DNA of 64,000 nt from Promethearchaeota archaeon (lineage in GTDB: Archaea; Asgardarchaeota; Lokiarchaeia; Sigyniarchaeales; SOKP01). The stretch covers positions 27,218-91,217 of the forward strand of contig JAEOTP010000068.1 in NCBI GenBank assembly GCA_016839765.1, in the 5' to 3' direction. The notes under the pieces were generated by a model, which was not told the DNA's origin, made no database searches, and saw only the letters and a program-made list of their open reading frames with translations. Numbering within the stretch: the stretch's first letter is position 1; each line of letters starts with the position of its first letter. Below, in pieces: positions 35,064-57,837 of the stretch. A program made the translations under genes and the position numbers.

Positions 35064-35807
35064 ATGAAGTCAAATTTTTTATTTGTGGGACACAGAGGAA
35101 CGAGATTTCAGTTTGATGAAAACACTATAGAAGCATTTGAGATCGCATTAATCCATGGAGCAAATTATATTGAGTTTGATATTCGTGAATTAAAAGATGG
35201 AAATTTAATCATTATTCATGATTCTTCGTTAGAGAGAACAACAAACGGTTTTGGTTTAATTAAAGATTATAATTATTCAGAGATAAGTAATCTAAATACA
35301 AGAAATAGAAATTGTAAAATACCTCTTTTACATGAGGTTTTGGAAAATTTTAGGAGTAAAACTAATTTTATAATCGAATTAAAAGAAGTAGATTCATGGC
35401 AGGAAGTTATAGATATTGTAATTAAAAAACAATTACTACTTAACACAATTTTTAGTGGAAGAAATTTAGTTATGTTAAAACGTTTGAAGACAAAGGCACC
35501 AGAAGCTCAAGTTTGTTATAATATTACTAAGGGACAAGGATTTACTTTGAAAAATTTTCTTGAAAATCGGGGCATGGATAAATTAACTTTTATTCCAGAC
35601 ATAATTAGTCTTAGATCTAACTTAATTGAAAAAAAATTTATTAAAAAATGTCATAAGCATAATTTATTAGCATTAGCTTGGGATTTCATTAATTACAAAA
35701 ATCCCATCGAAAAAATCAAATATTTAATCGATTTAGGAATTGATGGTATATTATTTGATGATTATCGCAATATTGGATTTATAAAAGATTATTTATTGAC
35801 CAGTTAA
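35064..35807 (+). CDS. Glycerophosphodiester phosphodiesterase (copy A)
   Basis: GHRG, ENT, IEFDI, HD, IELK, GIDGILFD; start set by alignment with copy B. Confidence 0.92.
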   Translation: MKSNFLFVGHRGTRFQFDENTIEAFEIALIHGANYIEFDIRELKDGNLIIIHDSSLERTTNGFGLIKDYNYSEISNLNTRNRNCKIPLLHEVLENFRSKTNFIIELKEVDSWQEVIDIVIKKQLLLNTIFSGRNLVMLKRLKTKAPEAQVCYNITKGQGFTLKNFLENRGMDKLTFIPDIISLRSNLIEKKFIKKCHKHNLLALAWDFINYKNPIEKIKYLIDLGIDGILFDDYRNIGFIKDYLLTS

Positions 35808-37867
35808 TTGTTTTTTATGATAGATTTCCCTGATGGAAGAATCAATACTATCTCGTCTAAAGTTAATAATTTTATCCATTTCCTTAATTTCTTTTCAGAT
35901 GTTTTTAAAAAATAAGATATTATTTCTTTTGCTAATGCTCCTTTTTGGAGTCCTGTATTAGAAGGTTTTATAATTAAAAAATTACTATCTTCAGATTCGA
36001 TTGCCCTTATTGGTCCAACCTTTATTTTCGGATAAAATTGATGATTTTCATCATTTGAAGTATCATGTAATTCAATTAATTCTAAACTAATAGCTAACTC
36101 TGTCTCAGCGTCTTTTATAAGGTTTTTTTTTCCTGAAATCATAAAAGAGCCTTTAGGTAGAAATTCACCTGAAGGAGGGGTTTTTGAAACTTGATTTGGC
36201 AACACAAAGAACACATCAACAACACCCCAATTTTCTTTCCATGCTCGAGAATAACTAGCAACGAATATTGCAGCCTCTTTTATTGTATTTTGGGGAATAT
36301 CTTTACCTTCCGGATTTTTTATGACTGTTAATGGGGAACCTGGAAAGTTTGTATGAAAAACTAAATCATTATCATCAACATATTTCTTATATATTAATTC
36401 ATTTGAATTAGCATCTCTCCCTCCAATAACAAGAAATTCTTCCGATGAAAAGAACCATCTAAATTTTTCAAACCACTTCTTCTTTGGTTTCTTAATTAAA
36501 ACATCTACTTTTTCTTCGATTGCATCTCTTTTATCAAGTAATTGTTGTATAGTTTTTTTAGTTTTTTCAATTGCAGGGATGGTGCCTTTTATTTTTTTTT
36601 CAAACTTTTTTCCTTTAGTATAGAGCCTATTGGCATTCTCTCCTAGACTATAATTTAAATTTAAATATACTTCATTATCTTTTATGTTAATTATTACTTG
36701 TTTTGTTGATGGTATAATTTTAATGAAGAATTGTAAACCTTCAATATTATCATTCTTGGCATTTAATAATTTTTCATTAATTTCTTCAATTGAATAGCCT
36801 CTGCTTCTTGCATTTGAGATTGTATCAAACAGTTTTTCTAATGTATTGAAATTAGTATATATAAAATCTCCATAATCATAGAATTTTTTCTTTTGAACTT
36901 TTAACTCGTTTAGATACTCCTTTTGTCTTTTTAAAATTTGTTCCTGAACATTTATTTGGTGATCAAGATTATCATTTTGGGAAGATTTAACTAGATCTGA
37001 ATCAATTTGAGAATAATAATAATCAACTGCTTCATTGAAAGACTCAAAATATCTTTTATTTTGATTTTGGTATAAAATAAGATCAAAAGGCTGAACTGAT
37101 ATTTGATTTTCATTCTCATCAAGTATAATATTTGCGTTAATTTTACCGAAAAGTAATTGATTTCTTAAATTTTTGAAAGCATCGAATAGATTTTTCAAGT
37201 TATCAATACCTAAACTATTACCTTTTTCAGTTTTTTCGATTCCTGCTTCATAGCAAAGTTCTTCACTATGTAGACCTGAGATATTTATATTTCTTGCTAA
37301 AATTCTGACTATTTCCTGATCTGAATCAATGATCAAGTCATTAAATTCTTCTCGGTTTAAAGTTAAAAAATCCTTTCCCCTTGGTTTAGGAAAACTATAT
37401 TCTCTATTAGCTAAAATATCACGGTCTTTAAATCTTTTATACTTATTAGCAATTTTTACAACATCCTTATCGTCAACCAATATATAATTGCCTTTATTGA
37501 ATAGTTCGACAATAAATTTCCATGGTTCCTCATCATAATTACTTAAATTAAAAATGATAATCCTATCGAAATTATGTTGAGATATAGACAAAATTTTTCT
37601 GTTTTTCATGAATTTTCTTAAAGACATTACATATTGAGAAGGATATTTTGGGATAGGATAATTATAATTTGTTAAATTGATTCGAGAGTCATTTTTTATA
37701 ATTAAATTTTTCTTCTCATTTTTCTTTGTTTTAAGTTTTAATATCAAGAGATCTTCAATTTCATATATATTTAAGATGATCCCTTGAGAAAGTATTGAGT
37801 CTAATTCTCTAACAATTATATATACATCAAAATTTGAAAATTTTAATATTCTTCTCATAAATACCAT
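35804..37867 (-). CDS. rqcH: RqcH/NEMF (NFACT) ribosome quality-control factor (copy A)
   Basis: FDRII, WFEKFRWF, GGRDA, SKTPPSGEFLPKGSFMISG. Confidence 0.95.
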   Translation of the reverse strand: MVFMRRILKFSNFDVYIIVRELDSILSQGIILNIYEIEDLLILKLKTKKNEKKNLIIKNDSRINLTNYNYPIPKYPSQYVMSLRKFMKNRKILSISQHNFDRIIIFNLSNYDEEPWKFIVELFNKGNYILVDDKDVVKIANKYKRFKDRDILANREYSFPKPRGKDFLTLNREEFNDLIIDSDQEIVRILARNINISGLHSEELCYEAGIEKTEKGNSLGIDNLKNLFDAFKNLRNQLLFGKINANIILDENENQISVQPFDLILYQNQNKRYFESFNEAVDYYYSQIDSDLVKSSQNDNLDHQINVQEQILKRQKEYLNELKVQKKKFYDYGDFIYTNFNTLEKLFDTISNARSRGYSIEEINEKLLNAKNDNIEGLQFFIKIIPSTKQVIINIKDNEVYLNLNYSLGENANRLYTKGKKFEKKIKGTIPAIEKTKKTIQQLLDKRDAIEEKVDVLIKKPKKKWFEKFRWFFSSEEFLVIGGRDANSNELIYKKYVDDNDLVFHTNFPGSPLTVIKNPEGKDIPQNTIKEAAIFVASYSRAWKENWGVVDVFFVLPNQVSKTPPSGEFLPKGSFMISGKKNLIKDAETELAISLELIELHDTSNDENHQFYPKIKVGPIRAIESEDSNFLIIKPSNTGLQKGALAKEIISYFLKTSEKKLRKWIKLLTLDEIVLILPSGKSIIKNN

Positions 37868-37944
37868 TATCGTTTGAATAAAATCTGAACTTTACTACAA
37901 TATATATAATGATTTTTATAATAAATAATATTAATAATACTATT

Positions 37945-38361
37945 ATGGTTAAAAAAGATAAACGCCAGAAGCGAACCAATATAAAGAAAGAACGTCAGAA
38001 GCGTATTAAAGAAAAAAAGAAACAACTACAAAAACAAGATTTATTATCAGATAAAAAAACTTCAAAGGGAATAGATCTCCGTTTAGAAAAAGAAACAAAA
38101 ATTTACTGGATTAGAGCAATAACAGGTGCCGCTAGCGCTTTAATTGGAATTTTAATAGGTTTAAAAGGATGGTGGATATTTCTCTGGATGATGTGCTTTT
38201 GGTGGATTACTCCATTTTTTGTAAGTTTTATAATATTAAGATATGAATATGATAAAGAGGAATGGAATTGGAAAAATATTATTAAGCCCGGAGTAGGAAT
38301 ATATTTCTTCCTTTTTATGATTATCTCAACTATTACATTCACATTAATTAGATATTTCTGA
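37945..38361 (+). CDS. EMC6-like 3-TM protein (copy A)
   Basis: YWIRAITGAASALIGILIGLKG and G.GIYFFLF pattern like EMC6; basic N-terminus. Confidence 0.6.
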   Translation: MVKKDKRQKRTNIKKERQKRIKEKKKQLQKQDLLSDKKTSKGIDLRLEKETKIYWIRAITGAASALIGILIGLKGWWIFLWMMCFWWITPFFVSFIILRYEYDKEEWNWKNIIKPGVGIYFFLFMIISTITFTLIRYF

Positions 38362-38364
38362 AAT

Positions 38365-38871
38365 TTATAATGAAATTGCTTGTTTTACTTTTTTCTCAAT
38401 TTTTTCTTTTGAAGTAAAAATAATTTCTTCTAATTTATAATTGCGATTACAATATATACATTGAATTTTCAATGGCTTTTCTTCTAAAACTAAGAATTCT
38501 GTGTCGATTGGCTCTTTTTCTGAATTTGAAATACATGTTTTGTTTTGGCAGAGTATTAATCTTTCAATAATTTGTGGTATTTTTACTTTTTTCTTTTCTA
38601 TCACTTTATAATTATCGATAAGAGAAATTGTTGCATTAGGTGAGAGAATCGAAATTTGTTGCATTTGTATTTCGTTCAGAAAAACTCCTTCAATCTTAAT
38701 TATATCTTTTTTATTATACTTTTTAGACGATACATTCACCCCGATAGTCATAAGATTTGGTGATTCATCAAGACCCGTTAGATTCAGAATTGTTAATGCA
38801 TAACCCGCATCGATATGGTCAATTACAGTACCTTTTTTTATTTTATCTATCTTTAATTTTTCTTCAGACAT
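38365..38871 (-). CDS. pyrI: Aspartate carbamoyltransferase regulatory chain (copy A)
   Basis: GTVIDHI, KDIIKIE; Zn cysteines C.N..CIS and CIYC. Confidence 0.97.
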   Translation of the reverse strand: MSEEKLKIDKIKKGTVIDHIDAGYALTILNLTGLDESPNLMTIGVNVSSKKYNKKDIIKIEGVFLNEIQMQQISILSPNATISLIDNYKVIEKKKVKIPQIIERLILCQNKTCISNSEKEPIDTEFLVLEEKPLKIQCIYCNRNYKLEEIIFTSKEKIEKKVKQAISL

Positions 38872-38936
38872 TTTCTTGTAATTTAAATAATCTAATTGAA
38901 AAAACTTTTGGCATAAATCAAGAATTTTATTATTAT

Positions 38937-40016
38937 TTAGATAATAATGAATGAGATAAAAAATAACACGGTTGATATAATAGAATTGTAAGTAAGATTA
39001 TCATCAATTTCTAAGTCTAAAAAATCTAACAATCCAATTAATAATGCACCAATCGAAGGTAATAAGAATATACTTAATAAATTTAATATTGATAATCCAT
39101 TTAAGAGTAATAAAACAATTATCCCAGAAAAGAAAGCAACAACTATTCCAGCAATTAATCCTGCATAAGTTTTATTTGTATTTCGAATTTTTTTATGACC
39201 AAATGTTCTCCCAAATAGATTAGCAGTCATATCACCAAAAATTGCCATTGTCATAGAAGTGCAGATTATTAAAGGGCCGATAGGTTGGATCACTCCATAA
39301 ATTATGATGATCGAAAAACACCCAATTCCCATAGAAATATGGGGGCCAAATCTCATGTGGCGTTCTTTCTCTCTTAGAATTCTATTAACAGGTTTTAAAG
39401 GATATACCTCTGGTTTCAATATCCTTATGAATTCTGCTGTGAAAAATCCAATTAAAGAAATTCCAACTAAGCATACTACTAAATATTGTGTAAAAATCAT
39501 ATTGGGTATATTATTATAAATTGAAAAAAATAATTCAGAGAAAAATGGCGGTAATAACTTGAATAAATAAACAAATAAATTCTGAACGAGGAATCCCAAT
39601 GTAAAATAGAAAAAGATAATTCCTAGTACTATTAAGTGGGATAATTTTCTGTAAATCTCATATTTTAATGGCAATTCTTTGGGAGTTAATAAATCATTTT
39701 TTCTTGTATTAGGTTTTCCTAGGCTAACTTTTTTCTTTTCCCTATGAATTAAAAGATAAAAAAAGGGTAAAAATAACAAAATGAAACCCAGTATAAGAAT
39801 ATCAAAAGGATATATAATCAAATCTATACTAGTTATATGAAGTAGATTAATTATTACTAAATTAATTGAGATGCTTATTAGGAAAACCAATGAATTAATC
39901 AGATTATTAAGGAATGCTCCCTTTTCACCCTTCTTTTTAGTAAGATAGGTAATATAGAATAAAATTAAGCCATATAGAGAAAAAATTCCTACTATAATGT
40001 ATGATAGCAAATCCAA
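38937..40016 (-). CDS. CTP-dependent polyprenol/diacylglycerol kinase family (SEC59/DGK1/phytol kinase) (copy A)
   Basis: RKLSHL, FGD..A..FG..FG, KTYAG, DDNL. Confidence 0.85.
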   Translation of the reverse strand: MDLLSYIIVGIFSLYGLILFYITYLTKKKGEKGAFLNNLINSLVFLISISINLVIINLLHITSIDLIIYPFDILILGFILLFLPFFYLLIHREKKKVSLGKPNTRKNDLLTPKELPLKYEIYRKLSHLIVLGIIFFYFTLGFLVQNLFVYLFKLLPPFFSELFFSIYNNIPNMIFTQYLVVCLVGISLIGFFTAEFIRILKPEVYPLKPVNRILREKERHMRFGPHISMGIGCFSIIIIYGVIQPIGPLIICTSMTMAIFGDMTANLFGRTFGHKKIRNTNKTYAGLIAGIVVAFFSGIIVLLLLNGLSILNLLSIFLLPSIGALLIGLLDFLDLEIDDNLTYNSIISTVLFFISFIII

Positions 40017-40115
40017 AGATTACAATTCTCGTGAGATTTTAATAATGTTAATGATCTTTATAATTTTAAGATTTACTGTAAAATTATTATCAAGAAAGAA
40101 AGAAAAAAAAATAAT

Positions 40116-41516
40116 TTAAAATTGATTTTCATCGATTATTGGCATATCTGGAGAAGCTAATGCTTTCTTAATATCTTCTTTTGGTAATTCATAATCTTCT
40201 AACTTACCGCTCATGAATTCTTTGTATGCTAATAAATCAAAAAATCCATGACCACTGAAATTGAATACGATTACCTTTTTCTCATTATTCTCTTTTGCTT
40301 TTAAGGCTTGATTTATTGCTTCTTTTACCGCATGAGCAGTTTCTGGTGCGGGTAAGATTCCTTCTGTTTGAGCGAATTTAAGACCTGCTTCAATAATTTC
40401 TGTTTGGTGAAGCATTGAAGTTGAAATGATATTGTTGTTAGATAAAATTGAAATAATAGGCGCCATTCCATGATATCTTAATCCTCCCGCATGTATTGGA
40501 CTAGGAATAAATGTATGCCCCAGAGTATACATTTTTAATATTGGTGCTTTTTTTGCAGTATCTCCAAAATCCCATCTATATTCTCCTTTGCAAACGCTTG
40601 GGCAAGCTCTTGGTTCTACCCCTATTATTTCTAAATCTGGACATTTCCCCTGTAATTTATCTTTTACGAATGGAATTGCAAATCCTCCAAAATTCGAACC
40701 ACCACCCATACAACCTATGAGAATATCTGGCTCTAATCCGATTTTTTTTAGTTGTACTTTAGTCTCTTGGCCGATTATAGTTTGATGTAAAAGTACAAAA
40801 TTTACCACACTTCCTAGTGAATAGCGTATTTTATCACTCCTTAGACTATGTTCAACTGCTTCAGATATTGCAATGCCTAAGCTTCCAGGATGATCTGGAT
40901 TAATGTCATAAAATGTTCTTCCGGCATCGGTATGTTTTGAGGGACTTGCATGAATTGCTGCATTATATGCTCTCATTAATATCTTTCTACCAGGCTTTTG
41001 GATAAAGCTCGCTCTTACCATGTAAACAGTACATTTTAATCCATATATATTACATCCATAAGAGAGCGCTGAACCCCATTGTCCTGCTCCGGTTTCAGTG
41101 ACAAGCTCCTCAATTCCTTGTATTCCCGCATAATAAGCTTGAGCTAGAGCCGTATTAGGCTTATGGGATCCTGTAGGAGAAACTGATTCATTTTTAAAGA
41201 AGATTTTTATTCTACCATCATTTATACCAAGCATTTTTTCTAAACGGACTGCTCTGTGAAGAGGTGTTGGACGATATGTTGTAGCATAGATTTCTCTTAG
41301 CTCCTTTGGGATACTAATCGTATTATCTTGAGATACCTCTTGTAACACGCATTCTTTAGGAAAGATCGCAAAAGCTAATTCTGGAGGTGCCGGTTTTCCG
41401 TCCATAGGATTAATTAAAGGCGTTATAGGTGATGGTAAATCTGGAAGAATGTTTATCCATTCTTTAGGAACTTCGTTTGGATCTAATAAAACTCTTGCAT
41501 TAAAATTTTCTAACAT
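40116..41516 (-). CDS. trpB2: TrpB2 PLP enzyme (copy A)
   Basis: PTGSHKPN, TETGAGQWG, GGGSN, HAGGLRYHG, SGHG. Confidence 0.97.
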   Translation of the reverse strand: MLENFNARVLLDPNEVPKEWINILPDLPSPITPLINPMDGKPAPPELAFAIFPKECVLQEVSQDNTISIPKELREIYATTYRPTPLHRAVRLEKMLGINDGRIKIFFKNESVSPTGSHKPNTALAQAYYAGIQGIEELVTETGAGQWGSALSYGCNIYGLKCTVYMVRASFIQKPGRKILMRAYNAAIHASPSKHTDAGRTFYDINPDHPGSLGIAISEAVEHSLRSDKIRYSLGSVVNFVLLHQTIIGQETKVQLKKIGLEPDILIGCMGGGSNFGGFAIPFVKDKLQGKCPDLEIIGVEPRACPSVCKGEYRWDFGDTAKKAPILKMYTLGHTFIPSPIHAGGLRYHGMAPIISILSNNNIISTSMLHQTEIIEAGLKFAQTEGILPAPETAHAVKEAINQALKAKENNEKKVIVFNFSGHGFFDLLAYKEFMSGKLEDYELPKEDIKKALASPDMPIIDENQF

Positions 41517-41559
41517 TTAAATCACCGTTTTACATTTTTAGTTAAAAATGCTACATCTT

Positions 41560-41587
41560 TATATTGGAATTCAATATAATTGACGCA
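41560..41587 (-). promoter_or_regulatory. Conserved 28-nt element in the trpB2 leader (copy A)
   Basis: TGCGTCAATTATATTGAATTCCAATATA; 23/28 identical to 56252-56279. Confidence 0.6.
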
Positions 41588-41673
41588 TAATTGGCAAAAC
41601 AATTAAGATAATACAAAGAGAGGGAAATTATGTGATAGAAAGAAAAATTTGATTTAATCCAATGAAGGCGTAA

Positions 41674-41727
41674 CTAAAAACGCCAAGGCCACTGCCAACG
41701 CCAAAAAGTATTTTTTTCAGTAGCCAT
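41674..41727 (-). CDS. Trp-rich leader peptide MATEKNTFWRWQWPWRF (alternative ATG at 41739)
   Basis: Hand translation; 4 TGG codons; stop 157 nt upstream of trpB2; conserved in copy B. Confidence 0.85.
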   Translation of the reverse strand: MATEKNTFWRWQWPWRF

Positions 41728-41831
41728 TGATAAAATCATTGTTGTTTTGTTATTAACAAAATAACAAAACTTATAAATTTAACTTTTTTTACCAAAAATA
41801 ATTTTTTTTACCAAAAATATCAAAAATCAAT

Positions 41832-42236
41832 TTATCTTCCTTCAAAGATTTTTGCTAAATTTTTTGCTGCAACTCTCATTACTTTAACGGTTTTCATTAA
41901 TGTGTCGATGAGTGTTCCAGCACATACAATTACTAATGGGCCTGCATTACTTACAACTATGTAGCCATTTTGGGCTCTTACAATTATTTCACTTAATTCT
42001 TCTTGAAACAGTGTCTGAATTGTTGAGCTACCAGTCATTAGTAGAGCACTTGCGAGCCCACAAAATTGATCGCCATCAACATGATATTGGGGAAGCGCAG
42101 AAAATGCAATTTGATACCCCTCCTGAGAAACAAGTGCAATTGCTTCAATGTCAGCATTAGAAGTTATAAATGTAATTTGAGGACTTATTTTTTCAATATC
42201 CTCATCAGTAATTCCAAGATCACTTCCGAACTGAAT
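41832..42236 (-). CDS. Roadblock/LC7 domain protein (copy A), probable ATT start
   Basis: IALVS.EGY.IA and EIIVRA.NGYIVV.NAG roadblock pattern; AGGTG SD 6 nt before the ATT. Confidence 0.9.
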   Translation of the reverse strand: MQFGSDLGITDEDIEKISPQITFITSNADIEAIALVSQEGYQIAFSALPQYHVDGDQFCGLASALLMTGSSTIQTLFQEELSEIIVRAQNGYIVVSNAGPLVIVCAGTLIDTLMKTVKVMRVAAKNLAKIFEGR

Positions 42237-42331
42237 CCAAATCACCTTTCTTGGGATAAATGAAAATAGAACCTTTATCTTAGTAATTTTTTAAAATTCT
42301 TTTTATTTATATATTTTCATTAAAATTCAAT

Positions 42332-42601
42332 TTATTTATAAAATTGTCTTTTCTTGTCTTCTTCTGATTTAGACTCTTCTTTTTTCTTAAAGTATTTTCT
42401 AAGCATGAAATAATTTATAATCATACCAACAAGTTCAACTAAAATACCAACAAATGCAATAATTGTTCCACCGAATTTGAGATGTCTTAATAATAAAGCA
42501 ACACCTAAACCGGAGGAACTAAATACAAACAAAAGAAAACCTTTAATGATTTGAGAAAAAGAGATTCTTAATTGGGTCAACTCTTTTTTGATCAAAGACA
42601 T
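42332..42601 (-). CDS. Small 2-TM protein (copy A)
   Basis: IKKEL...SGLG shared with 49604-49879. Confidence 0.85.
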   Translation of the reverse strand: MSLIKKELTQLRISFSQIIKGFLLFVFSSSGLGVALLLRHLKFGGTIIAFVGILVELVGMIINYFMLRKYFKKKEESKSEEDKKRQFYK

Positions 42602-42675
42602 AACTTAAATAATTTTTTATAGATTTTAAATTTGGTTAAATAAATAGTTCTCTATTAAATACTTTGTATCTTACT

Positions 42676-45075
42676 CTAAATATTTCTTCTTTTCTTTTTA
42701 AATTTAATATATAGAGCATTATCTAATATTTTTCCAATTTTAAGAGCAATATTTTTAGCAATCAAATATCTTTCCCCATCAAGCATGGATTTTATCTCAT
42801 TATGACTCGGCTTATGAGTTAACCTTTCAATTAATACATTTTCCACTAATAATTCGACAGAATCCTCAATTTGCTTGTAATCAGGTAAATTTATATCAAG
42901 TTTAAATGATTTTATTTTCTCGACGACAAAATTATAATATTCACAAAATCTCGTATAAGGATCATCATTTAATTCACTATGCAGTTTAATATTATCTGTT
43001 GCTATCTTAGTGTCTTTTTCTTGCCAATAAAATTGATTAGGATTTATTCCAGGGCGATTTATCCCCATCAACGAGGATGTTATACGTCTTTCTATCCAAT
43101 TAAAGGTACTTTCTTTCTGCTTTTCACGGATTTCTTCTTTTTTTATTTCCTTTTCTCTTTTTTCAATCTCAATGACTTTCTTAACTTTAGATTTACGTTT
43201 TTCCTCGAACACTTCTAGTCTTTTTATTAATTCAAATGCGATACAATAAGAGATAGGGGAAATTAAATCTGCTTGTAATTTCAATGGCTTAATATTTTCG
43301 TATATTAAGCTTGGATTTTCCCTTAATTCGATTATACATTCTTGAAGAGGTTTGTCTGTTAACCTTGATAAAATAAAACCATTCACTAGGAAAACTTGAT
43401 TATTCGCATTAAATACAATAACTAATTCTTTTTGTCTTCTTATTATTCGTTTAATTATTAATTCTTCTAATTTAATATTTATCCAATCTTCATATTCTAA
43501 AGTTCCCTCTATTTTTTTTAAAGCTTGTAATATTAATCCCTTGTCATTATTAATTTTGTTATACGATTCAATTATCCTACTTAATTGTCTAAGGATTTTT
43601 GATAATATATAATAAAAAATATCTCTTATCAAATTATCAATAACTTCTTCAAAACTTAAGAGTGTAATTATTTGATTATAATTACTCATCCCTAGTTCTT
43701 TTAGAAAAACTTTATCAATAATTTGCTTCTTTCTTACAAACTCTCTGAGGTCGTTAATTGATCCTCCCATTTTCTTTTCCAATAACTCCCATAATTTTTT
43801 TAGTTGTAAGTCATCTCTATACAAAAATTTAGAAAGATTAAATTCAGATATATTGTCAAAGCCTCCTAATATTCTTTCTATATAAGGAAAATTAAGTCCT
43901 ACAATCTCCTTTTTCGCTAGATTAACTAAATTTTTATTTTTATCATTTAATGCTAAAAAATCCTGTTTTTTTATATTAAATTTGATCATATTTTTCTTTA
44001 TTTCCGAAATTAAATCATTATCAACATTGATTAAATGCATAATATCATAAATTCCACGTTTATTTAACTGATACATAATTTCATCAAAAGAATATTCATA
44101 AAGGCTTTGTATTAAGTAGATAAAGTCATTTGGGTTAGTTTTAAGTTGTTTTACTATCAATTTTTTTAAAAAATTTAAAGTGCTATTCTCAAAATCTTCA
44201 TAAATTATCCTCTCTTGAAGAGCTTTATTTATAAGATTTAATAACTCCATTTTTATTGAATTGCCTTTTAAGAATGCTCTCAAACCTGGAACTGAAACTG
44301 GATATTTATTAAATTCATAATCCAAAATTTTCTTTTTAATCATCCTAACTGGCATAGCTTCAACTTGGAGCTCCTTATAAGATTTAAATTCGTAATCCCT
44401 GTGAATAACTTTTATCAATCGATTGAGTGTTGATAATTCGATGAATTTATCTTCCTTTTCTTTCTTATCTAATTTTTTTTCAATATCAACAGACAGATCT
44501 TTGAATGCTGATTCTTCTTCTAGGATTTCTCTCTTTATATGATTATTTAGACCAATTATATCTCCTAATAAATCATAGAAGTAAAAAGGAGGATATTTTC
44601 TAATTATCTCCAATAATTCAAACTCGATCTTTTGATCTATTTCCTTTAGTTTTTCATTTTTTTGATAGTCATTAAAAGAAGATACTCTTTCTTCAATTAA
44701 GAAAGATAAGAATAGATTTTCTAGAGTTATTATTTTATAGAGTAAATCAATCTCTAAATCGAAAGAATTTTTTAGTAATAATTCAACTTCGTTCATCAGA
44801 GTCTCTTTTTCATTAATTTCTAAGTCCCCTACAACTTTATCAGAAAAATGCTCAGATTCAAAATCTTGTGGAAATCTAACTCCAAAATTATGATACAAAT
44901 GAACTGATGCAGTTGCAACTAACAATATACTAAGATTTGGAGAAGAATCGGTCAGTTCAAAGATTTTTTGCCTATCTGCAGGTCTTTTAAAGTGTGAGAG
45001 AATTAAATCAATAGTTTGGAAGTATCTATAAGTACTTTCTATAGCAGTTGTTTTTCTTTTAATACCACTTATCAT
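42676..45075 (-). CDS. 799-aa helical protein of unknown function (copy A)
   Basis: MISGIKRKTTA; ATGA overlap with upstream gene; homolog at 50035-52227. Confidence 0.9.
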   Translation of the reverse strand: MISGIKRKTTAIESTYRYFQTIDLILSHFKRPADRQKIFELTDSSPNLSILLVATASVHLYHNFGVRFPQDFESEHFSDKVVGDLEINEKETLMNEVELLLKNSFDLEIDLLYKIITLENLFLSFLIEERVSSFNDYQKNEKLKEIDQKIEFELLEIIRKYPPFYFYDLLGDIIGLNNHIKREILEEESAFKDLSVDIEKKLDKKEKEDKFIELSTLNRLIKVIHRDYEFKSYKELQVEAMPVRMIKKKILDYEFNKYPVSVPGLRAFLKGNSIKMELLNLINKALQERIIYEDFENSTLNFLKKLIVKQLKTNPNDFIYLIQSLYEYSFDEIMYQLNKRGIYDIMHLINVDNDLISEIKKNMIKFNIKKQDFLALNDKNKNLVNLAKKEIVGLNFPYIERILGGFDNISEFNLSKFLYRDDLQLKKLWELLEKKMGGSINDLREFVRKKQIIDKVFLKELGMSNYNQIITLLSFEEVIDNLIRDIFYYILSKILRQLSRIIESYNKINNDKGLILQALKKIEGTLEYEDWINIKLEELIIKRIIRRQKELVIVFNANNQVFLVNGFILSRLTDKPLQECIIELRENPSLIYENIKPLKLQADLISPISYCIAFELIKRLEVFEEKRKSKVKKVIEIEKREKEIKKEEIREKQKESTFNWIERRITSSLMGINRPGINPNQFYWQEKDTKIATDNIKLHSELNDDPYTRFCEYYNFVVEKIKSFKLDINLPDYKQIEDSVELLVENVLIERLTHKPSHNEIKSMLDGERYLIAKNIALKIGKILDNALYIKFKKKRRNI

Positions 45076-47378
45076 AACTCTTTAATCCACTCCCTATAAA
45101 CCTCTTTAAAATTATCTGAAATTTCAAACTTTGACTTAGTATGCCAATATTTAAAATTAACAAGGTGAAACAAAGTACTTTTAAAAAGCTCTTTTTCTTC
45201 ATTTGTTAAAGTATGCTTTAAGATTATGCTTTTAGGTCTAGGGATTAGTTTTGAGAAATATTTCAATTCATTTTCGTTAATATATTTATATAATGTATCC
45301 TCTTCTGAAATATTTAAAAGTGTAATTGGAAGTACTTTGTTTTGATTCAATTTTAACAAATTAACTTCAGTTTCAATTTTTTTTTGAACATACTTCGGAA
45401 ATTCAAGTTTAATATCAATACAGAATTCAAATTTTTTAGAAAAATCTAATAGAAGATTTTTCTCTGTCTCATCTAATACCTTAACAATATACGTATCTAA
45501 AAATACTAAAAATTGTTTTTCATTTTGCTCAAAAGTTTCGCGTTTTTCAATATATTCAACAAAATCTGTATATGTCTCATTTAAACTCCAATCTCTTTTT
45601 TCTTCTATCTTAAAAAATCTTTTTGCATAATCTTTTATCCATTCTAAGACATAAGATTTCCAAATTAAATCTATTCCCCCCATTCTTTTTTCCAGAAATC
45701 GATAGAATTTATTTGCGAATGTAACTGGATCTGAGATTTCAATATCATTTTCTTCCTTTAAAAAGCGATTAATTGTTGAATACCTTAATATATAATTTAT
45801 TAAAAACCTTAATTCGTTTGAAAATTTCTCAAAATTATTTAAATGCTTTTTAATTAAACCAGAATTACTTTCCATTTGTACTTCCGCAAAGGCTACTAAA
45901 TCACTAATACTTAATTTTACTTCTTTTATAAAAGAGGAAAGTGTTTCAATTACAATTTTTTTAAACTCTTTTATAAGTAAATTCAAATCAAAAAGATAAT
46001 CTTTTATCAAGGTAATTGAATTAAATTCAATTTTATTGAGGAGAACACTTTTAAATTTAGAAATTAAATTTTGACCTAGTGCTTTCACTGGTTTTTGTTC
46101 TTTATCAAACTTTTCATTTAAATTACTAATGAGAATATTTACTAAGAAAATCAATTCTCTGCGATAAAGAAAACGAGGTAAAGATTTCCTCATTAAGTTA
46201 AAGTTATTTTTAAAAATTTCAGCAAAGTAATTTACTGCTGAATTTAATTCTATAGCAATTAAATCTTCATCTTTTCTAATTGATTGATTTATTGAGAAAC
46301 TTGCTAATTCAAATAAATCTCTATAATTATAATTTCCTTGATCATTCTTCTTCTCTATGAAGTTATCAAACTTTTTTAAAAGATGGGTTGAATCACCCTT
46401 TTCGCCAGAAGCAAGAAACTCATTAGATACTTCTAAAAATTTATTTAATTTCTTTTCCATTCGATTAAAAAAATCTTCAAAGTAAGATGTTATCCATTCA
46501 ATGGAACAGTTTTCTTGATATGCTCCAACTTCCTCTCTAATTTTTTTAATTAAATAGAATAAAATTCTATCTTGAGATTCATCTATCGTACCAGTGTTAG
46601 CTAATTTCATAAGATTTGTCCCCAATTTTAATGTATTTTCAACCAAAAAATTAGCACTAGGGACGGAGATTAAGTATTTTAGGTGTTCTATGGCCATTTG
46701 GTCATCAAATGGAGACTGGAACTTTTCATATTCGGGATTAAAAAAGTTAAGCTCAAAAGGATTTTTATTCCAAAAAAATTCTACGTCATTTTTTATAGAG
46801 CCATATGTTTTTAACATATCTTCATCAGTGGGGAGGGAGATATTTATTCCAATCAGTTTTTTGTTCCATTTATCTTCAATTAATTCACCATACAGTTTTT
46901 TACTAAAGCGTTCAGCAAAACTTTCTAATAATCTAATCTTCCCTTCCCTGTCTAATTCGGGATGATCTGTGAATTCTTCTACTTCAAAAAACAATTTACT
47001 AATATCATCAATGGATTCCTTGGATTTATGAGTATCTAAATAGCCAGTATCCGGTTTTAAGGCAAGAAGTAAACTTTCACAATCTTTATAATTTCCCGGA
47101 ATCAATAACATAGATTTTGGATAAATATTGATTCTAGCATCCTTCTCATCAAAATTAAATAATTCAAACTCAGCGTAGAATAATTCAGAACCCGTATAAT
47201 CTCTCAATATTGCATTGTACATTCTCAAAAATCTGATAACTTCTTGTGATAATTCATTTACTCTAACACTTGTTAACTTACCTGGACCCAAAACATTTCC
47301 CACAATGATATCTTTTGGACTAGAATAACCAAAAATCAATGAAAATTGATAATTAATAGATTCTCTTGTTGTTATCAT
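45072..47378 (-). CDS. 768-aa helical protein of unknown function (copy A)
   Basis: MITTRESINYQFSLIFGYSSP identical in 52224-54530. Confidence 0.9.
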   Translation of the reverse strand: MITTRESINYQFSLIFGYSSPKDIIVGNVLGPGKLTSVRVNELSQEVIRFLRMYNAILRDYTGSELFYAEFELFNFDEKDARINIYPKSMLLIPGNYKDCESLLLALKPDTGYLDTHKSKESIDDISKLFFEVEEFTDHPELDREGKIRLLESFAERFSKKLYGELIEDKWNKKLIGINISLPTDEDMLKTYGSIKNDVEFFWNKNPFELNFFNPEYEKFQSPFDDQMAIEHLKYLISVPSANFLVENTLKLGTNLMKLANTGTIDESQDRILFYLIKKIREEVGAYQENCSIEWITSYFEDFFNRMEKKLNKFLEVSNEFLASGEKGDSTHLLKKFDNFIEKKNDQGNYNYRDLFELASFSINQSIRKDEDLIAIELNSAVNYFAEIFKNNFNLMRKSLPRFLYRRELIFLVNILISNLNEKFDKEQKPVKALGQNLISKFKSVLLNKIEFNSITLIKDYLFDLNLLIKEFKKIVIETLSSFIKEVKLSISDLVAFAEVQMESNSGLIKKHLNNFEKFSNELRFLINYILRYSTINRFLKEENDIEISDPVTFANKFYRFLEKRMGGIDLIWKSYVLEWIKDYAKRFFKIEEKRDWSLNETYTDFVEYIEKRETFEQNEKQFLVFLDTYIVKVLDETEKNLLLDFSKKFEFCIDIKLEFPKYVQKKIETEVNLLKLNQNKVLPITLLNISEEDTLYKYINENELKYFSKLIPRPKSIILKHTLTNEEKELFKSTLFHLVNFKYWHTKSKFEISDNFKEVYREWIKEL

Positions 47379-47527
47379 AATTAGAAAATAAAAAAAAATA
47401 ATTTTGCAAAGATACTAGTTAAAAAATTTAAATAATTTATAGTTGAATTAGTATTAAAATTTAAGCTGATCATAAGAAGATTTACATATTAAATAGTCAT
47501 TTATTTATTACAACCTTTTAGCCTACT

Positions 47528-47585
47528 ATGACAGGTTTAAACCTCGTATCTTGCAACATCAATTAAGAGTTTCGCAGGGATCTGA
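47528..47585 (+). ncRNA. Possible box C/D sRNA (degenerate C box)
   Basis: GC-richer intergenic island ATGACAG...GAGTTTCGCAGGGAT-CTGA, 58 nt. Confidence 0.3.
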
Positions 47586-47608
47586 AAATATATAAACCAA
47601 CTCCTATT

Positions 47609-48355
47609 TCATAATATAGCATAATTTTCCCATAATCTTTCCTTTACATTATGCGATATTAAATAATCCTTAATATCGGTTAATAATATATTTGGATCAA
47701 ACTCCCAAGCAGCATATTCGTTAAATGATAAGCATTTTAAATTCTCAATATTTAATACTGATTTCAATAAAAGCCCATAAGTAGCAACCTGAGGTAAAGA
47801 AAACATAAAATTTCCTTCAGGCTTATAATCAATCACTTTAACTGTATTATGTTGAATTTGAATCAGATCAATATGCCCAGTAATAGAATTTTTACCAACC
47901 CTTTTCCAAATAGGGATCTCAATAGCAACTGAATCCTTATCTTTAATTAAAATATATTTTAAAACAGGACCATGCCCTGGTTTTTGCCCAATTCCGTCAT
48001 TCTTAAAATTTGCATGAACCTTCCGAGCATATTGAGGTAAATTTGAATTTGAATCAAAATACTCAATTTTTCCCTCCCGGATTAGCTTTTTGGCAAAATG
48101 ATTAATAAATATCGACTTTATCCCGGTGATCTTAAATCTAGATACTCGAGGTAATGATTTTGAGTTAAATAAATTATTTGGAATCTTCCCTTGATAAATT
48201 CGATTAAAATATTTCCCTAAAAGTACAAACTCAGATCGATAAGGATTTAATTGGAAAACTTTTTGCTTATGATGTTCAATATTCCAATTAAAAACATATG
48301 GAATTTGTTGATGAACAAAAACTCGATTTCTAATTGATTGTTGATATGAACTCAT
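47609..48355 (-). CDS. PD-(D/E)XK nuclease, RecB/Cas4-like fold (copy A)
   Basis: AIEIP, ITGHIDLI, IDYK, QVATY. Confidence 0.85.
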   Translation of the reverse strand: MSSYQQSIRNRVFVHQQIPYVFNWNIEHHKQKVFQLNPYRSEFVLLGKYFNRIYQGKIPNNLFNSKSLPRVSRFKITGIKSIFINHFAKKLIREGKIEYFDSNSNLPQYARKVHANFKNDGIGQKPGHGPVLKYILIKDKDSVAIEIPIWKRVGKNSITGHIDLIQIQHNTVKVIDYKPEGNFMFSLPQVATYGLLLKSVLNIENLKCLSFNEYAAWEFDPNILLTDIKDYLISHNVKERLWENYAIL

Positions 48356-48506
48356 CTAGTCAATATTTATGTTTTAAATTTAAAAAAACATTTATATTAA
48401 TGATTTATTAATTTGTAAAGTTGTTCTTAAATTTTTTTATTCCTAGAATTAAGGGAATTGAAATCTAAAAAGTTTTATTTAAAAAACTCAGCATAAAAAA
48501 TTAAAA

Positions 48507-48611
48507 CGGACCCGGCAGGATTCGAACCTGCGACTTTCGGATTAGAAGTCCGACGCCCTATCCATACTAGGCAAGCTAGGCTGGCTAGCTGGCTGGCTAG
48601 GCTATAGGTCC
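48507..48611 (-). tRNA. tRNA-Arg(TCT) with 30-nt D-loop intron (48565-48594)
   Basis: Anticodon arm TCGGA-CTTCTAA-TCCGA; T arm GCAGG-TTCGAAT-CCTGC; BHB splicing gives the typical GCCTAGCCTGGATAGGGC D arm. Confidence 0.92.
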
Positions 48612-48866
48612 TTGCTTTATAAAATAAAGATTTTATATTTTATAAAATATCCTTTATGATGTTTAAAGTTTATTATGACTTGTTGTTGCTCTTCTCTTAT
48701 TAAGAAATTAAAAAATAATTTTCTATTTCTGAAAATAGACTCATTAATTTCTTGATGAATTAATAAATTATTAATACATTTTATTTAATAAAATACAACA
48801 TTAAATTATAATTAAGACATATATTGAATATATAAACGTGATTTGGTAATATAAAAGAGAGTATTA

Positions 48867-49592
48867 ATGGAGCTTAAACAAAAACATTTTGTACATCAAA
48901 ACATACCCTATTCTTTCAATTGGAATAAGATTCATCATAAACAAAAATTTTATCAAATAATTGCTAATCGAGAAGAATTAAATAGACTTAAAGCACATTT
49001 TAAAAGAGTAGCTGAAGGGAAAATTCCGAATAGGTTATTTAATTCTCGAGATCTTCCAAGAGTTTCTCAATTTAAAATTAGAGGTATTAAGCCAGCTTTT
49101 ATTAGAAGTTTTAGTAAAAGTTTAATTCGTTCAGGGAAAATAAAGCGTTTTGATTCCAATTCAAAATTATCCTTGTATGCTCAGAGAGTATTTGAAAGTT
49201 ATAAAGAAAGTGGATTCAGAGGAGACCCTGGACATGAACCAATTTTAAAAAACATTTTAATTAAAGATAAGGACTCTGTAGCAATAGAAGTTCCGATTTG
49301 GAAGGAAGAAGAAAACAAAACCATTACAGGGCATATTGATTTGATTCAAATTGAAAATAATGCTGTTAAAGTAATTGATTACAAACCAGAAGGAAAATTT
49401 TTACTCTCTTTACCCCAAGTAGCAATGTACGGTATTTTATTTAAATCGAGATTAAATATTAAGACGGTAAAATGCGTTTCTTTCAATAAAGAAGAAGTTT
49501 GGGAATATGATCCAAAAACGTTATTGTCTGAAGTTAAAGAATATTTAATTTCTCATCATATTAATGAAAGGCCATGGGAAGATTTCATATAA
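48867..49592 (+). CDS. PD-(D/E)XK nuclease (copy B)
   Basis: ITGHIDLIQI, IDYKPEG, QVAMY. Confidence 0.85.
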   Translation: MELKQKHFVHQNIPYSFNWNKIHHKQKFYQIIANREELNRLKAHFKRVAEGKIPNRLFNSRDLPRVSQFKIRGIKPAFIRSFSKSLIRSGKIKRFDSNSKLSLYAQRVFESYKESGFRGDPGHEPILKNILIKDKDSVAIEVPIWKEEENKTITGHIDLIQIENNAVKVIDYKPEGKFLLSLPQVAMYGILFKSRLNIKTVKCVSFNKEEVWEYDPKTLLSEVKEYLISHHINERPWEDFI

Positions 49593-49603
49593 AGGGAATC
49601 TAT

Positions 49604-49879
49604 CTAGAGCTTCTTTCCTTTTGGTTTTGAGGGTTCAGGTTCTTCCCTAGGTTTCACATACCCTTTAAACATGAAATAACATAAAAGTAAGGCTACTAAT
49701 TCTGTAGCAACACCAAGAAAAGAAATAATTGTACCATTATATCCCAGATATCTCAATACTAATGCAAAACCTAAACCTGAAAATGCTAAAATAAATAAAA
49801 TAAATCCTTTTATGATTTCTAGGAAGGAATCTTTAATATATCCAAGTTCTTTCTTAATCCAAGTAAAAATTGAAGCCAT
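49604..49879 (-). CDS. Small 2-TM protein (copy B)
   Basis: Homolog of 42332-42601. Confidence 0.85.
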   Translation of the reverse strand: MASIFTWIKKELGYIKDSFLEIIKGFILFILAFSGLGFALVLRYLGYNGTIISFLGVATELVALLLCYFMFKGYVKPREEPEPSKPKGKKL

Positions 49880-50034
49880 AAGATGATTCTACTTCTATAT
49901 AATTTTAAATAAATTAAATAAATATCATTTTAATATCTTTGTTATTTTCTAAAGATTTATCTAAATATTCAAATCAGAAATGATTATGATTAAACTATAC
50001 TTATCGATATTAACCTAAAGTTTTTGAGATAGTC

Positions 50035-52227
50035 TTAGCTCCTTTGTTTACTTTTAAATTTAGAATATAATGCCTTATCTAACAATTTGCCTATTCTTTG
50101 GGCAATTTGTTTACCAATTTCATATCTTTCACCATCAAGTAAATTTCTCATTGCTTCTGGGGTAGGATTGTTCCCTAATCTTCTAAACAAAACTTTTTCT
50201 GTTATTTCATTTACCATATCTTTAATTTTTCCATAATCAGGTAAATTAATATTGGGATTAAAGCTTTTGATTTTCTCTATTGCAAATTGAAAAAATTGAC
50301 TAAATAACTCGATTGGATCACCTTTTAATTCACTATGAAGTTTAATATTATCAGTAGCTATTTTTGTATCTTTTTCTTGCCAATACAACTGATTTGGATT
50401 GATACCTGGACTATTTATTCTCATAAGTGAACTTGTAATTCGGCGTTCAATCCAATTTAATGTACTAACTTCCTGTTTTTCACGTATTTCCTTCTTTTTT
50501 TCTATTTTTTCTTTTTCTTTAGATTCTATAATTTGTTCTACTTTCGATTTACGTTGTTCTTCAAGGTCTTCAAACCTTTTAATTATATCATATCCTATAC
50601 AGTAAGAAATTGGTGAGATTAGATCTGATTTTAACTTTAATGACGATATCCCGGTATATACGTGACTATTCTTCTCTTTTAATTCTAAAATTCCCTCTTT
50701 TAAAGGAATACCCATCAATCGTGCCAATATAAAACCATTAATTAAAAATGGTTGATTATCCGCATTAAATACTATAACTAACTCTTCTTGTCTCTTATTT
50801 AATTTTTCTATTATTAATTCCTCTAACTTAACCCTAACCCATTCTTCAGAATCAGTAGTTCCAAATATTTTTCTTAAAGCTAAAAGAAATAATGTTTTAT
50901 CATTTGAAATTTTAAGATATAGCTCAATAATCCGACTAAGTTGTCTTAGTATTTTTGATAACATATAAAAAAATATGTCTTTCACTAATTTGTCCATGAT
51001 ATCTTCAAAATCTAACACAAATAAGATATGAGCATAATTTTTTAATCCTAATTCTTTTAAAAAGACCTTCTCAATAACTTGCTTTTTTCTTAGATCATTT
51101 GGATCTATAAGATCATGTTTTGTTATATTATATCTGACCATATTTCTCCTTACTTCTTCAGTAATGGACTCGTCTATATCCATGAGATATAAGATATTGT
51201 AGACTCCATATCTATTTAACATAAAGATTAAATCATTGAAACTACATTCATTTAGGCTCTGTAGAAAATAAATGAAATCATTTGGATTAATTTTCAGTTG
51301 TTTAAATAACTCAGATTTTAAGAAGCTCAAAATATTTTGTTCAAATTGGTCATAATTAATTTTTTCTTTTAGAGCATTTTCTATTCTCTTTAACAGTTCT
51401 TTTTTAAGGTTGTTTGTTTCTTTAAAGATTTTTAGTCCGGGAATGGAAATTGGGAACCGATCAAAGTTATAATCAAAAATTCTTCGTTTTATCATTCTAA
51501 CTGGCATTGCCTGTACCTGCAATTCCTTATATGATTTGAATTCGAAGTCTTTTCGGATTTTGTCAATCATTCGACTTAAGGTTGCTAATTCGATAAACTT
51601 ATCTTCTTTCTCTTCTCGTTCTAATTTTTTTTCAATTTCTAGTGATAAATCTTTAAAAGCAGAACTTTCCTCTAGGATTTGTAATTTAGTTTCGTCAGTT
51701 AATCCTATCAAATCGCCGATTAAATCATAAAAATAAAAAGGTGGGTAATTTAATATAATTTCTAATAATTCTTGTTCAACTTTTTGTTCAATTTCATTCA
51801 ATATTTGCTTCTTTTGAAACTCTGGAAGTGTAGATTCTCTTTCTTCAATTAGATATGATATAAATCTATTCTCTAAATCAAATATCTTATTAAGAACCCC
51901 AATTTCTAATATGAATGAATCTTTTAATAATGTATCAACTTCTTCTATTAAAATCTTTTTTTCAATGTGCTCTAAATTTTTAGTTGACTCAAAGGAAAAT
52001 TTATCTTGCTCTAAGGTTTCTTTAACTCTAATACCTAAGCTGTGATAAATATGAATTACAGCTGTAGCAATTAAAAGATCTTTGAAAGTGGTTTTTTGAC
52101 TTGTTAATTCAAATATTTTTTGCTTATCTGCATCTCTCTTAAAATGGGAAATAATTAAATCTACAGTTTGAAAAAATCTAAATGTACTTTCAACCGCGGT
52201 TGTCTTTCTTTTTATCCCACTAATCAT
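50035..52227 (-). CDS. 730-aa helical protein (copy B of the 799-aa protein)
   Basis: MISGIKRKTTA start; ATGA overlap conserved. Confidence 0.9.
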   Translation of the reverse strand: MISGIKRKTTAVESTFRFFQTVDLIISHFKRDADKQKIFELTSQKTTFKDLLIATAVIHIYHSLGIRVKETLEQDKFSFESTKNLEHIEKKILIEEVDTLLKDSFILEIGVLNKIFDLENRFISYLIEERESTLPEFQKKQILNEIEQKVEQELLEIILNYPPFYFYDLIGDLIGLTDETKLQILEESSAFKDLSLEIEKKLEREEKEDKFIELATLSRMIDKIRKDFEFKSYKELQVQAMPVRMIKRRIFDYNFDRFPISIPGLKIFKETNNLKKELLKRIENALKEKINYDQFEQNILSFLKSELFKQLKINPNDFIYFLQSLNECSFNDLIFMLNRYGVYNILYLMDIDESITEEVRRNMVRYNITKHDLIDPNDLRKKQVIEKVFLKELGLKNYAHILFVLDFEDIMDKLVKDIFFYMLSKILRQLSRIIELYLKISNDKTLFLLALRKIFGTTDSEEWVRVKLEELIIEKLNKRQEELVIVFNADNQPFLINGFILARLMGIPLKEGILELKEKNSHVYTGISSLKLKSDLISPISYCIGYDIIKRFEDLEEQRKSKVEQIIESKEKEKIEKKKEIREKQEVSTLNWIERRITSSLMRINSPGINPNQLYWQEKDTKIATDNIKLHSELKGDPIELFSQFFQFAIEKIKSFNPNINLPDYGKIKDMVNEITEKVLFRRLGNNPTPEAMRNLLDGERYEIGKQIAQRIGKLLDKALYSKFKSKQRS

Positions 52228-54530: not shown

Positions 54531-54733
54531 GACTCAAAATAAATAAAAATCTTATTTCTTTAATCATTAAATCATAACTATTATAATTCTTACTGAAATT
54601 GCGAAAAAATTTAGGAATTATTTTTAATATTTTTAAGTTTATATAATATTAAAATTTACTTTTGAATAGTAAATAAATTAATTTCATAAAAATTTATATT
54701 TAAAATTCTAATATAGTAGATAGATGGAAAAAA

Positions 54734-55405: not shown

Positions 55406-55537
55406 CAATTGAAAATTATGGAATTTTATTTGAATTAAATTTTATCTTAACGAAAATAAATAAATAAATGGATTTTAATTAATTTAATATAAGTATAATC
55501 TAAAATTTTATATAAATTATCTAAAAGGTGTAGGCTT

Positions 55538-55942: not shown

Positions 55943-56112
55943 ATTATAAATTTTTCTTATTTTAAATCTTCACAGTTCTGTGTATTTAGTTGGGCATGAA
56001 AGTATTTTATTGTCTTAATTTTATAGAAAGTACTTTTTAGATCAATTAACTTTTTATTTAATAATAAATAGTTAAATCAATAATTTTTATTATGATAATA
56101 TGGTTTAATTTT

Positions 56113-56163
56113 ATGGCAACTGGAAATTATTATTTTTGGCAGTGGCCTTGGTCTTGGTTGTAA
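56113..56163 (+). CDS. Trp-rich leader peptide MATGNYYFWQWPWSWL (alternative ATG at 56092)
   Basis: Hand translation; 4 TGG codons; stop 148 nt upstream of trpB2. Confidence 0.85.
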   Translation: MATGNYYFWQWPWSWL

Positions 56164-56251
56164 GACCCATTATATTGCCTTAAACCATACCTTACTTTCT
56201 CTCTTTTCTTAATTTTCGTTTTTCTAAATTATCGAATACTCTATTTAAATG

Positions 56252-56279
56252 TGCATTAATTATTTTGATTTCCAATTTA
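56252..56279 (+). promoter_or_regulatory. Conserved 28-nt element in the trpB2 leader (copy B)
   Basis: TGCATTAATTATTTTGATTTCCAATTTA matches copy A. Confidence 0.6.
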
Positions 56280-56311
56280 GTAATGAGACACAAAAAATAA
56301 GTTGATAAAAA

Positions 56312-57727: not shown

Positions 57728-57837
57728 ATAATAATTTTAAATAATTTTTTTTCCTAAATAATCTAATTTTACTTTTAAAGAAAATCTTAAAAATGAAAGA
57801 ATCCTTAAAATATTCAAATTTAAGAGATTGGTAATTT

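Follow-up and report, generated by a model that had tools for sequence, protein, structure and literature searches.

Attenuation by leader peptides is a textbook mode of gene control that needs coupled transcription and translation as well as hairpin terminators, and, to our knowledge, descriptions of it are confined to bacteria. Trp is sensed in its free form by TnaC, an arrest peptide that works with Rho termination and induces a catabolic operon, and TrpY of Methanothermobacter is a DNA-binding repressor that operates at the promoter of the trp operon and involves no leader peptide. Neither a leader-peptide attenuator from archaea nor any account of how Asgard trp genes are regulated came up in a search of the full-text literature, and a review of transcription-translation coupling contains no mention of attenuation (PMC8116511). 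The terminator signal of archaea consists of U4 tracts, which are bound by aCPSF1 and give stronger termination as their number increases; a Lokiarchaeota ortholog of aCPSF1 behaved alike, and archaeal U-tract terminators have been reported to have no hairpin requirement (PMC8716108).

Here, we analyze a leader found upstream of trpB2 in a Promethearchaeota archaeon (GCA_016839765.1), on a stretch of 64,000 nt (contig JAEOTP010000068.1, 27,218-91,217 of the forward strand) that we refer to as the window and whose coordinates are used throughout unless a contig is named. The leader resembles the bacterial trpL (RF00513) in featuring a short ORF with clustered Trp codons, which is followed by helices and a U-rich tract, and in its expected logic, whereby stalling results in read-through. 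Unlike trpL, which has two adjacent Trp codons, the archaeal leader displays three to six alternating UGG codons; further, a hairpin loop contains its stop codon, a long-range helix surrounds the entire uORF, the 1:2 / 2:3 / 3:4 scheme was not found in it, and its predicted terminator is an archaeal U-tract that is possibly read by aCPSF1. A scan of the leader against Rfam (cmscan, E up to 10) recovered chance matches only, with neither RF00513 nor a T-box among them.

Several other systems share individual traits with this leader. As in tnaCAB of E. coli, there is a Trp-linked leader peptide, which in that operon is coupled to factor-dependent termination in an unstructured tract 3′ of the stop, and the peptides of one Asgard family (f6; see below) have the TnaC-like trait of ending in W-P-stop; unlike TnaC, the peptides studied here have many Trp codons (3-6), a variable N-terminus and no conserved Asp/Pro spacing of the TnaC type. 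The TRAP system of Bacillus similarly features triplet repeats at a fixed spacing in a trp leader; however, it combines 9-11 (G/U)AG repeats with a protein, as against the three to six UGG inside a conserved ORF in the present case, and a search of the genome for TRAP (PF02081) gave no match, with the B. subtilis control being found. TrpY likewise provides archaeal control of Trp synthesis, but does so with no leader peptide; the palindromic boxes that lie downstream of the uORF (see below) could nevertheless constitute a TrpY-type site. The mycobacterial polycysteine uORF attenuators (bioRxiv 10.1101/834739) are alike in being short ORFs rich in one amino acid, with control of an operon by that amino acid and an architecture different from the enterobacterial one, and unlike in being bacterial, leaderless and Cys-sensing. 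The leader is best regarded as an archaeal variant of ribosome-mediated attenuation, a probable bacterial-style form of control.

Our main reading, to which we assign a probability of roughly 0.7, is that the leader is a ribosome-read Trp sensor in the 5′ leader of trpB2 that gates premature termination. The sensor part is well supported, with the conservation of the ORF, its exclusive link to trp genes, the P2 and P1 helices and the enrichment of U-tracts all being computed results; translation, stalling and the termination output are predicted.

A Trp-rich uORF in the trpB2 leader

The original prediction had placed a W-rich uORF with four TGG codons on the minus strand, downstream of a TATA box and with its stop 157 nt before trpB2, and had noted a C/U-rich tract after that stop. 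All these elements are borne out, the tract being pyrimidine/U-rich (Table 1). The four UGG codons fall within seven codons. A longer uORF can be read from an in-frame ATG at 41739, and the alignment of leaders points to the ATG given in Table 1 as the conserved start. Upstream of it, the TTTATAAGTT of the predicted distal promoter is kept in the aligned orthologous leaders and, at the other end of the leader, SD-like sequences (AGGA, GGTA or GGTG) are found at the same place in the orthologs. The product of trpB2 matches NF009057 at 645 bits and TIGR01415 at 605 bits; in line with established work on TrpB2 proteins, it presumably functions in indole salvage. In this 96%-complete assembly trpA, trpC and trpE were not detected, with all control genomes being positive, and trpE is absent from 34/34 genomes of the genus. 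Hence, TrpB2 is the only detected route to Trp in this organism and a sensible target for regulation by it.

Table 1. Features of the trpB2 leader, its second copy and the candidate termination factors (window coordinates unless a contig is named)
Feature	Position	Strand	Basis
Predicted distal promoter: BRE-like AAAGTTAAA and TATA box TTTATAAG (41777-41770)	41770..41786	-	Sequence reading
P1 5′ strand (UGAUUU.AUC)	41729..41738	-	MFE and centroid fold
Leader ORF (uORF) MATEKNTFWRWQWPWRF*, 17 codons and stop; ATG at 41727, TAG at 41676-41674	41674..41727	-	ORF reading and alignment of leaders
Trp sensor: four UGG (41703-01, 41697-95, 41691-89, 41685-83) alternating with CGU, CAG, CCU	41683..41703	-	Sequence
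P2 hairpin: GGCGU (41684-41680) / ACGCC (41671-41667)	41667..41684	-	Covariation and fold
Conserved CAUUGG box and P1 3′ strand (GAU.AAAUCA, 41659-41650)	41650..41664	-	Alignment and fold
U/C-rich tracts UUUUUCUUUCU ... UUUCCCUCUCUUUG, putative terminator signal of the archaeal type	41613..41647	-	Sequence and tract counts
Downstream conserved module	41532..41590	-	Alignment, covariation and fold
Shine-Dalgarno GGUGAU of trpB2	41521..41526	-	Sequence
trpB2, stand-alone TrpB-like PLP enzyme, 466 aa; ATG at 41516	40116..41516	-	Profile match
Second leader ORF MATGNYYFWQWPWSWL*, 5′ of the second trpB2 (56312-57727)	56113..56163	+	
Downstream module of the second copy	56230..56300		
Best beta-CASP proteins of this assembly	C57:21425-22729 and C96:157678-160008		

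UGG is rare in this DNA because the G+C content of the window is only 26-33%. The pattern TGGN3TGGN3TGGN3TGG occurs five times on the two strands of the 3.32-Mb genome, as against 0.12 expected; two of these occurrences are the leaders of both trpB2 copies in the window and the other three are repeats within coding sequence. The W-rich uORF in the trpB2 leader is not a chance occurrence. By itself, WxW is frequent (46 short ORFs per genome), and cases with only two Trp codons therefore require additional support.

The original prediction called for a check of orthologous trpB2 leaders for W-rich short ORFs with codon-level constraint, and both are present. When 73 distinct orthologous leaders are aligned, the start of the uORF is ATG in 66/73 and GTG in 3/73, and a start in frame with at least two Trp codons and a stop is found in 71/73. 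Among these 71, the uORF has a length of 15-18 codons in 62, the first Trp is codon 9 in 56, and there are 3-5 Trp codons in 65. Across the same alignment, the N-terminal residues vary freely and the W run is fixed. Since start, frame, stop and length are kept while the N-terminus varies, the signature is, as far as an alignment can tell, that of a translated sensor ORF, unlike what one would expect if the peptide itself had a function or if the motif were not translated. There is also constraint at the level of codons: the codon that follows UGG begins with C in ~88% of cases (CAG, CGU, CCU, CAA, CAU), which results in a UGGC repeat with a 6-nt period, and Gln is encoded by CAG three times more commonly than by CAA despite a G+C content of 28%. 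Such constrained synonymous sites indicate that the RNA sequence is important beyond coding; the preference for C after UGG may stem from pairing with the GCCA of the 3′ arm of P2 or from decoding context.

Distribution of the leader and its linkage to trp genes

The close relatives of this locus all come from metagenome genomes named Promethearchaeota or Promethearchaeia (Lokiarchaeia-type Asgard archaea). A short W-rich ORF is found 5′ of trpB2 at 23/23 loci of the genus, at 7/8 loci from other families of the order and at ~64/73 further Promethearchaeota loci (e.g., WRWQWPWRWR*, WQWPWRWQ* and WCWQWPWRWR*). Nine loci are without a W-rich uORF, one of them having an N gap and another a hairpin remnant. 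Variants of the leader are displayed outside the order by families f19, f30, f10 and f5, and related leaders precede trpB2 in other Asgard classes; many other Asgard families have no leader within 600 nt. In family f6, which comprises 1.4-Mb genomes, the peptide is FWAWRWLTWP*, the stop lies in the loop of a hairpin that is followed by UGCAAUGG, a U6-7 tract is present, and the leader is situated 79-88 nt 5′ of trpB2.

We built a covariance model (R1) on the uORF region and ran it against 121 genomes of the family, of which 90 were matched once or twice each (98 matches in total). In 42 genomes, the match lies directly 5′ of trpB2 on the same strand. Ten other matches were inspected: six are before TrpD (TIGR01245, 422 bits), three are before TrpB2-like genes, and one is a remnant locus (G073:C96:3922-6600), in which a full leader stands directly before a 344-aa gene and pyrI, the usual followers of trpB2. 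No trpB2 lies between the leader and the 344-aa gene at that locus, which looks like one that has lost trpB2 and kept the leader. It is the whole 270-nt leader, with its downstream boxes included, that recurs before trpD. Six R1 matches share the strand of trpE and are located 5-6 kb 5′ of it, a position at the head of a trp operon, and in two other genera trpE is directly preceded by a different leader with four Trp codons (TWFW.WRWHA*), which shares the hairpin, a CAAUGG box and the U-tracts. Across the 121 genomes, every R1 match that was mapped precedes trpB2 or trpD, which heads the trp operon, and none turned up away from trp genes.

Two genomes have ~250 nt of additional sequence between the leader and trpD (L199, L200), with an apparent small ORF beginning MSHYHKNILYTFNKE....

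A whole-genome scan was also run for leader ORFs enriched in amino acids other than Trp. Its top matches precede genes for a CCG-domain protein, ETF-alpha, a radical-SAM enzyme, a flavodiiron-type protein and a CobW GTPase; no cognate biosynthesis gene is among them, and in this genome leaders of this kind at other amino-acid genes thus find no support. A 30-codon ORF with 13 Met codons (MTRRMMKIWMMTMITGMMM...; G000:C27:2249-2341, plus strand) is found on a short contig and is followed by no gene on the same strand. Two kinds of Trp-rich candidates were rejected: a WxW ORF before a class-I W/Y tRNA synthetase is an off-frame reading of the preceding gene, and the 'CWFWYF'-type ORFs 5′ of trpE (L122, L124, L127, L132) are off-frame readings of the GFGIS motif of TrpA. 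The latter pseudo-leaders are a pitfall for automated searches for Trp-rich uORFs.

RNA structure and U-tracts

The original prediction saw no obvious GC-rich terminator hairpin, and this proved wrong: a covarying hairpin (P2) runs from the last Trp codon across the stop, and the U-tracts are preceded by a long-range helix (P1). The 5′ arm of P2 begins in the last Trp codon and the UAG stop lies in the loop. This geometry is present in 79/86 leaders, with 72 having only one or two codons from the last Trp to the stop. In the alignment, 91% of the cells in P2 are paired and 3/5 pairs have changes on both sides. Its arms are GGUGC/GCACU, GUUGGC/GCCAAC or GCGCG/CGCGC in relatives and, with compensatory changes, GGUCUU/AAGACC in the second copy of the window, and in other families P2 reaches 7-11 bp with different sequences. 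The short-window z-scores of P2 are weak (median -1.0, mononucleotide shuffle); what speaks for this helix is covariation, together with its reappearance in leaders of unlike sequence. RNAalifold on a 23-sequence alignment returned P2 only; AT-rich helices were tested by hand.

P1 pairs the 20 nt 5′ of the uORF AUG with positions +14 to +29 after the stop, such that the whole uORF is enclosed; its 5′ strand stops directly before the AUG and spans the ribosome-binding region of the uORF. In a duplex test against shuffled controls, 30/68 leaders ranked within the lowest 5%, and 14 within the lowest 1%. The sequences of P1 differ between clades, and the pair at alignment positions 70/167 covaries (GC 14, AU 6, GU 3, never unpaired). 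P1 has a median of 14 bp in the stronger cases, and only 9 bp with an internal loop in the minus-strand leader of the window (copy A). Both window copies fold as P1 and P2, with fold z-scores of -2.5 and -2.3. In some clades P1 and the local hairpin share a strand, and in copy A the stretch holding the CAUUGG box and the P1 3′ strand is also able to form a small local hairpin (P3). A further helix, of the start region with the UGG run, was not counted, as it is 74% paired and hardly covaries. Neither a clear terminator/antiterminator pair nor a conserved antiterminator was found in the leaders.

Directly after the uORF, U-tracts are enriched ~2.5-fold. Between stop+15 and stop+65, tracts of at least four T number 2.23 on average over 71 leaders, with 79% having at least two, and 85% of leaders have a run of at least five U in the 50 nt from stop+15. 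The controls, namely flanking windows and 1,906 upstream regions taken from this genome, have 0.8-1.0 tracts, with 18-23% having at least two. The tracts set in at a median of 9 nt past the 3′ strand of P1.

Proposed mechanism and the site of control

We propose that transcription would start ~25 nt past the TATA box and that ribosomes would translate the 17-codon uORF, in which the four UGG occupy codons 9-15. With charged tRNA-Trp plentiful, the ribosome would attain the stop in the P2 loop and depart, upon which P2 and the long-range P1 would fold and the polymerase would terminate at the U-tracts, either alone or with aCPSF1/FttA. With charged tRNA-Trp scarce, a ribosome stalled on the UGG run would mask the 5′ arm of P2 and occupy the loop that P1 must close, while a queued second ribosome would possibly sit on the 5′ strand of P1; the closed fold would thereby be blocked, allowing read-through into trpB2. 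The spacing between the AUG and the first Trp, fixed at nine codons or about one ribosome length, hints that such a queued ribosome might mask the 5′ strand of P1. As a stalled ribosome would block P2 and P1 and a departing one would permit both before the U-tracts are reached, premature termination would be the likeliest output. The reported ability of archaeal terminators to do without hairpins (PMC8716108) counts against termination that is gated by folding, as does the lack of a conserved antiterminator among the leaders. In addition, when U-tract accessibility was modelled for a leader with no ribosome, with one on the UGG run and with one at the stop, no consistent shift emerged.

We incline slightly towards the broader proposal that these leaders constitute a phylum-wide Asgard class of amino-acid attenuators that are read by the ribosome and would be the first of their kind in Archaea, with a design of their own: a closing helix that includes the ribosome-binding site, a stop codon in a hairpin loop and a read-out by U-tracts, with the Trp at codon 9 possibly letting a queued ribosome hold the helix open. 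If so, ribosome-polymerase coupling in archaea would be tight enough for regulation, and this in the closest prokaryotic relatives of eukaryotes. The leader would also offer a natural cis system for examining how archaeal termination (U-tracts, aCPSF1/FttA) is modulated, and, for archaeal genetics and the few Asgard strains in culture, a compact switch that responds to Trp. trpB2, too, would stand out as a genuine route to tryptophan under Trp control in organisms in which the remaining pathway was not found.

The U-tracts could alternatively be the direct point of control, with the ribosome altering the access of FttA/aCPSF1 to the C/U tract by a tnaC/Rho-like logic to which RNA folding is irrelevant. 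Such a scheme agrees with the enrichment of U-tracts after the uORF and the binding of U-tracts by aCPSF1 (PMC8716108), and a steric exclusion between FttA and the coupled ribosome has been proposed (PMC11616081). However, a ribosome stalled 30-60 nt upstream would leave the U-tract unshielded and hence lower expression in starvation, which is the wrong direction; moreover, the covarying P2 and P1 are ignored by it, and a search for aCPSF1/FttA in this 96%-complete assembly found none above the TIGR03675 cut-off, a negative that weighs on our main reading too. The best beta-CASP proteins (Table 1) are one of 434 aa without KH domains and one of 776 aa whose 290-aa N-terminal extension matches no known family. 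A tnaC-like logic is also a poor fit because tnaC is about induction of a catabolic gene by free Trp, whereas the same leader precedes the biosynthetic trpD and trpE. We therefore regard control of factor access as unlikely. The original prediction of a Trp-sensing uORF is supported as regards a cis-acting sensor of a Trp gene, given the 71/73 leaders and the trp-only linkage, and is not supported as regards the tnaC-like logic that it had attached to it.

The downstream module

Between the U-tracts and the trpB2 SD there are nearly invariant boxes (GCAUUA, UUGAnUUCCAAU and AUGAGACA), with a hairpin just 5′ of the SD. In copy A, this module holds the GCGUCA/GCAUUA box, the palindrome UAUAUUGAAUUCCAAUAUA (41578-41560), where UUGAnUUCCAAU is a perfect palindrome, and the hairpin GCAUUUUU-AACU-AAAAAUGU (41551-41532). 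The boxes persist in nine orthologs without the uORF and are also present in the trpD-linked leaders; the module, being kept without the uORF and recurring before trpD, is therefore probably part of Trp control and workable in the absence of the uORF. It could serve a regulator as its operator, next to a proximal promoter, or act at the RNA level as a platform for translation, and the boxes may represent a second, independent layer of Trp control. The nine orthologs that lack the uORF and keep the boxes allow for either a proximal promoter or such a second layer.

The conserved hairpins just before the SD raise the prospect of translational control in the manner of ermC, in which a stall would refold the leader and expose the ribosome-binding site of trpB2, with transcription being unregulated; from the alignment, a conserved UUCCA box could pair with a GGAA-type SD. 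We consider this decidedly unlikely, as the stop of the uORF is 140-175 nt from the SD, the downstream boxes remain where the uORF has been lost and the enrichment of U-tracts is left unexplained.

W/R-rich peptides resemble antimicrobial peptides, and one may envisage two separate units, with the W-rich ORF being a small gene or sRNA that has its own terminator and trpB2 being transcribed from a proximal promoter/operator, so that nothing acts in cis. The boxes TTGAnTTCCAAT and an A/T-rich stretch do resemble a promoter with a palindromic operator, and the boxes survive in orthologs that have no uORF, among them one that has lost the distal TATA too. This arrangement is nevertheless very unlikely: no copy of the element turned up away from trp genes among the mapped matches in the 121 genomes, the entire leader recurs before trpD together with its boxes, the N-terminal half of the peptide is unconserved, and the hairpin before the SD displays compensatory changes, which suggests that the region is transcribed. 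Finally, an untranslated RNA element whose UGG(C) repeats bind a TRAP-like protein or the CCA of tRNA, with the ORF being incidental, would account for the very high nucleotide conservation of UGGCAGUGGCCUUGGCG and the 6-nt period of UGGC, but is extremely improbable given that start, frame, stop and length are kept through ATG/GTG exchange, that neither a TRAP homolog nor any Rfam family (T-box included) was matched and that there are only 3-6 repeats.

The second copy and its genomic setting

The two trpB2 copies of the window belong to mirror-image syntenic blocks (35800-48500 on the minus strand and 48600-62000 on the plus strand), each with a roadblock gene, the leader, trpB2, a 359-aa membrane protein, pyrI and a gene for a 687-aa protein. 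The DNA of copy A is 97% identical to that of other genomes with a single copy, and copy B shares 92.6% identity with a different one of them; the two copies are only 73% alike, and relatives have one trpB2 each. This pattern of identities fits a second arm that might have come from another lineage and been joined by an assembly error; alternatively, the paired blocks may have originated by an old duplication or by gene transfer.
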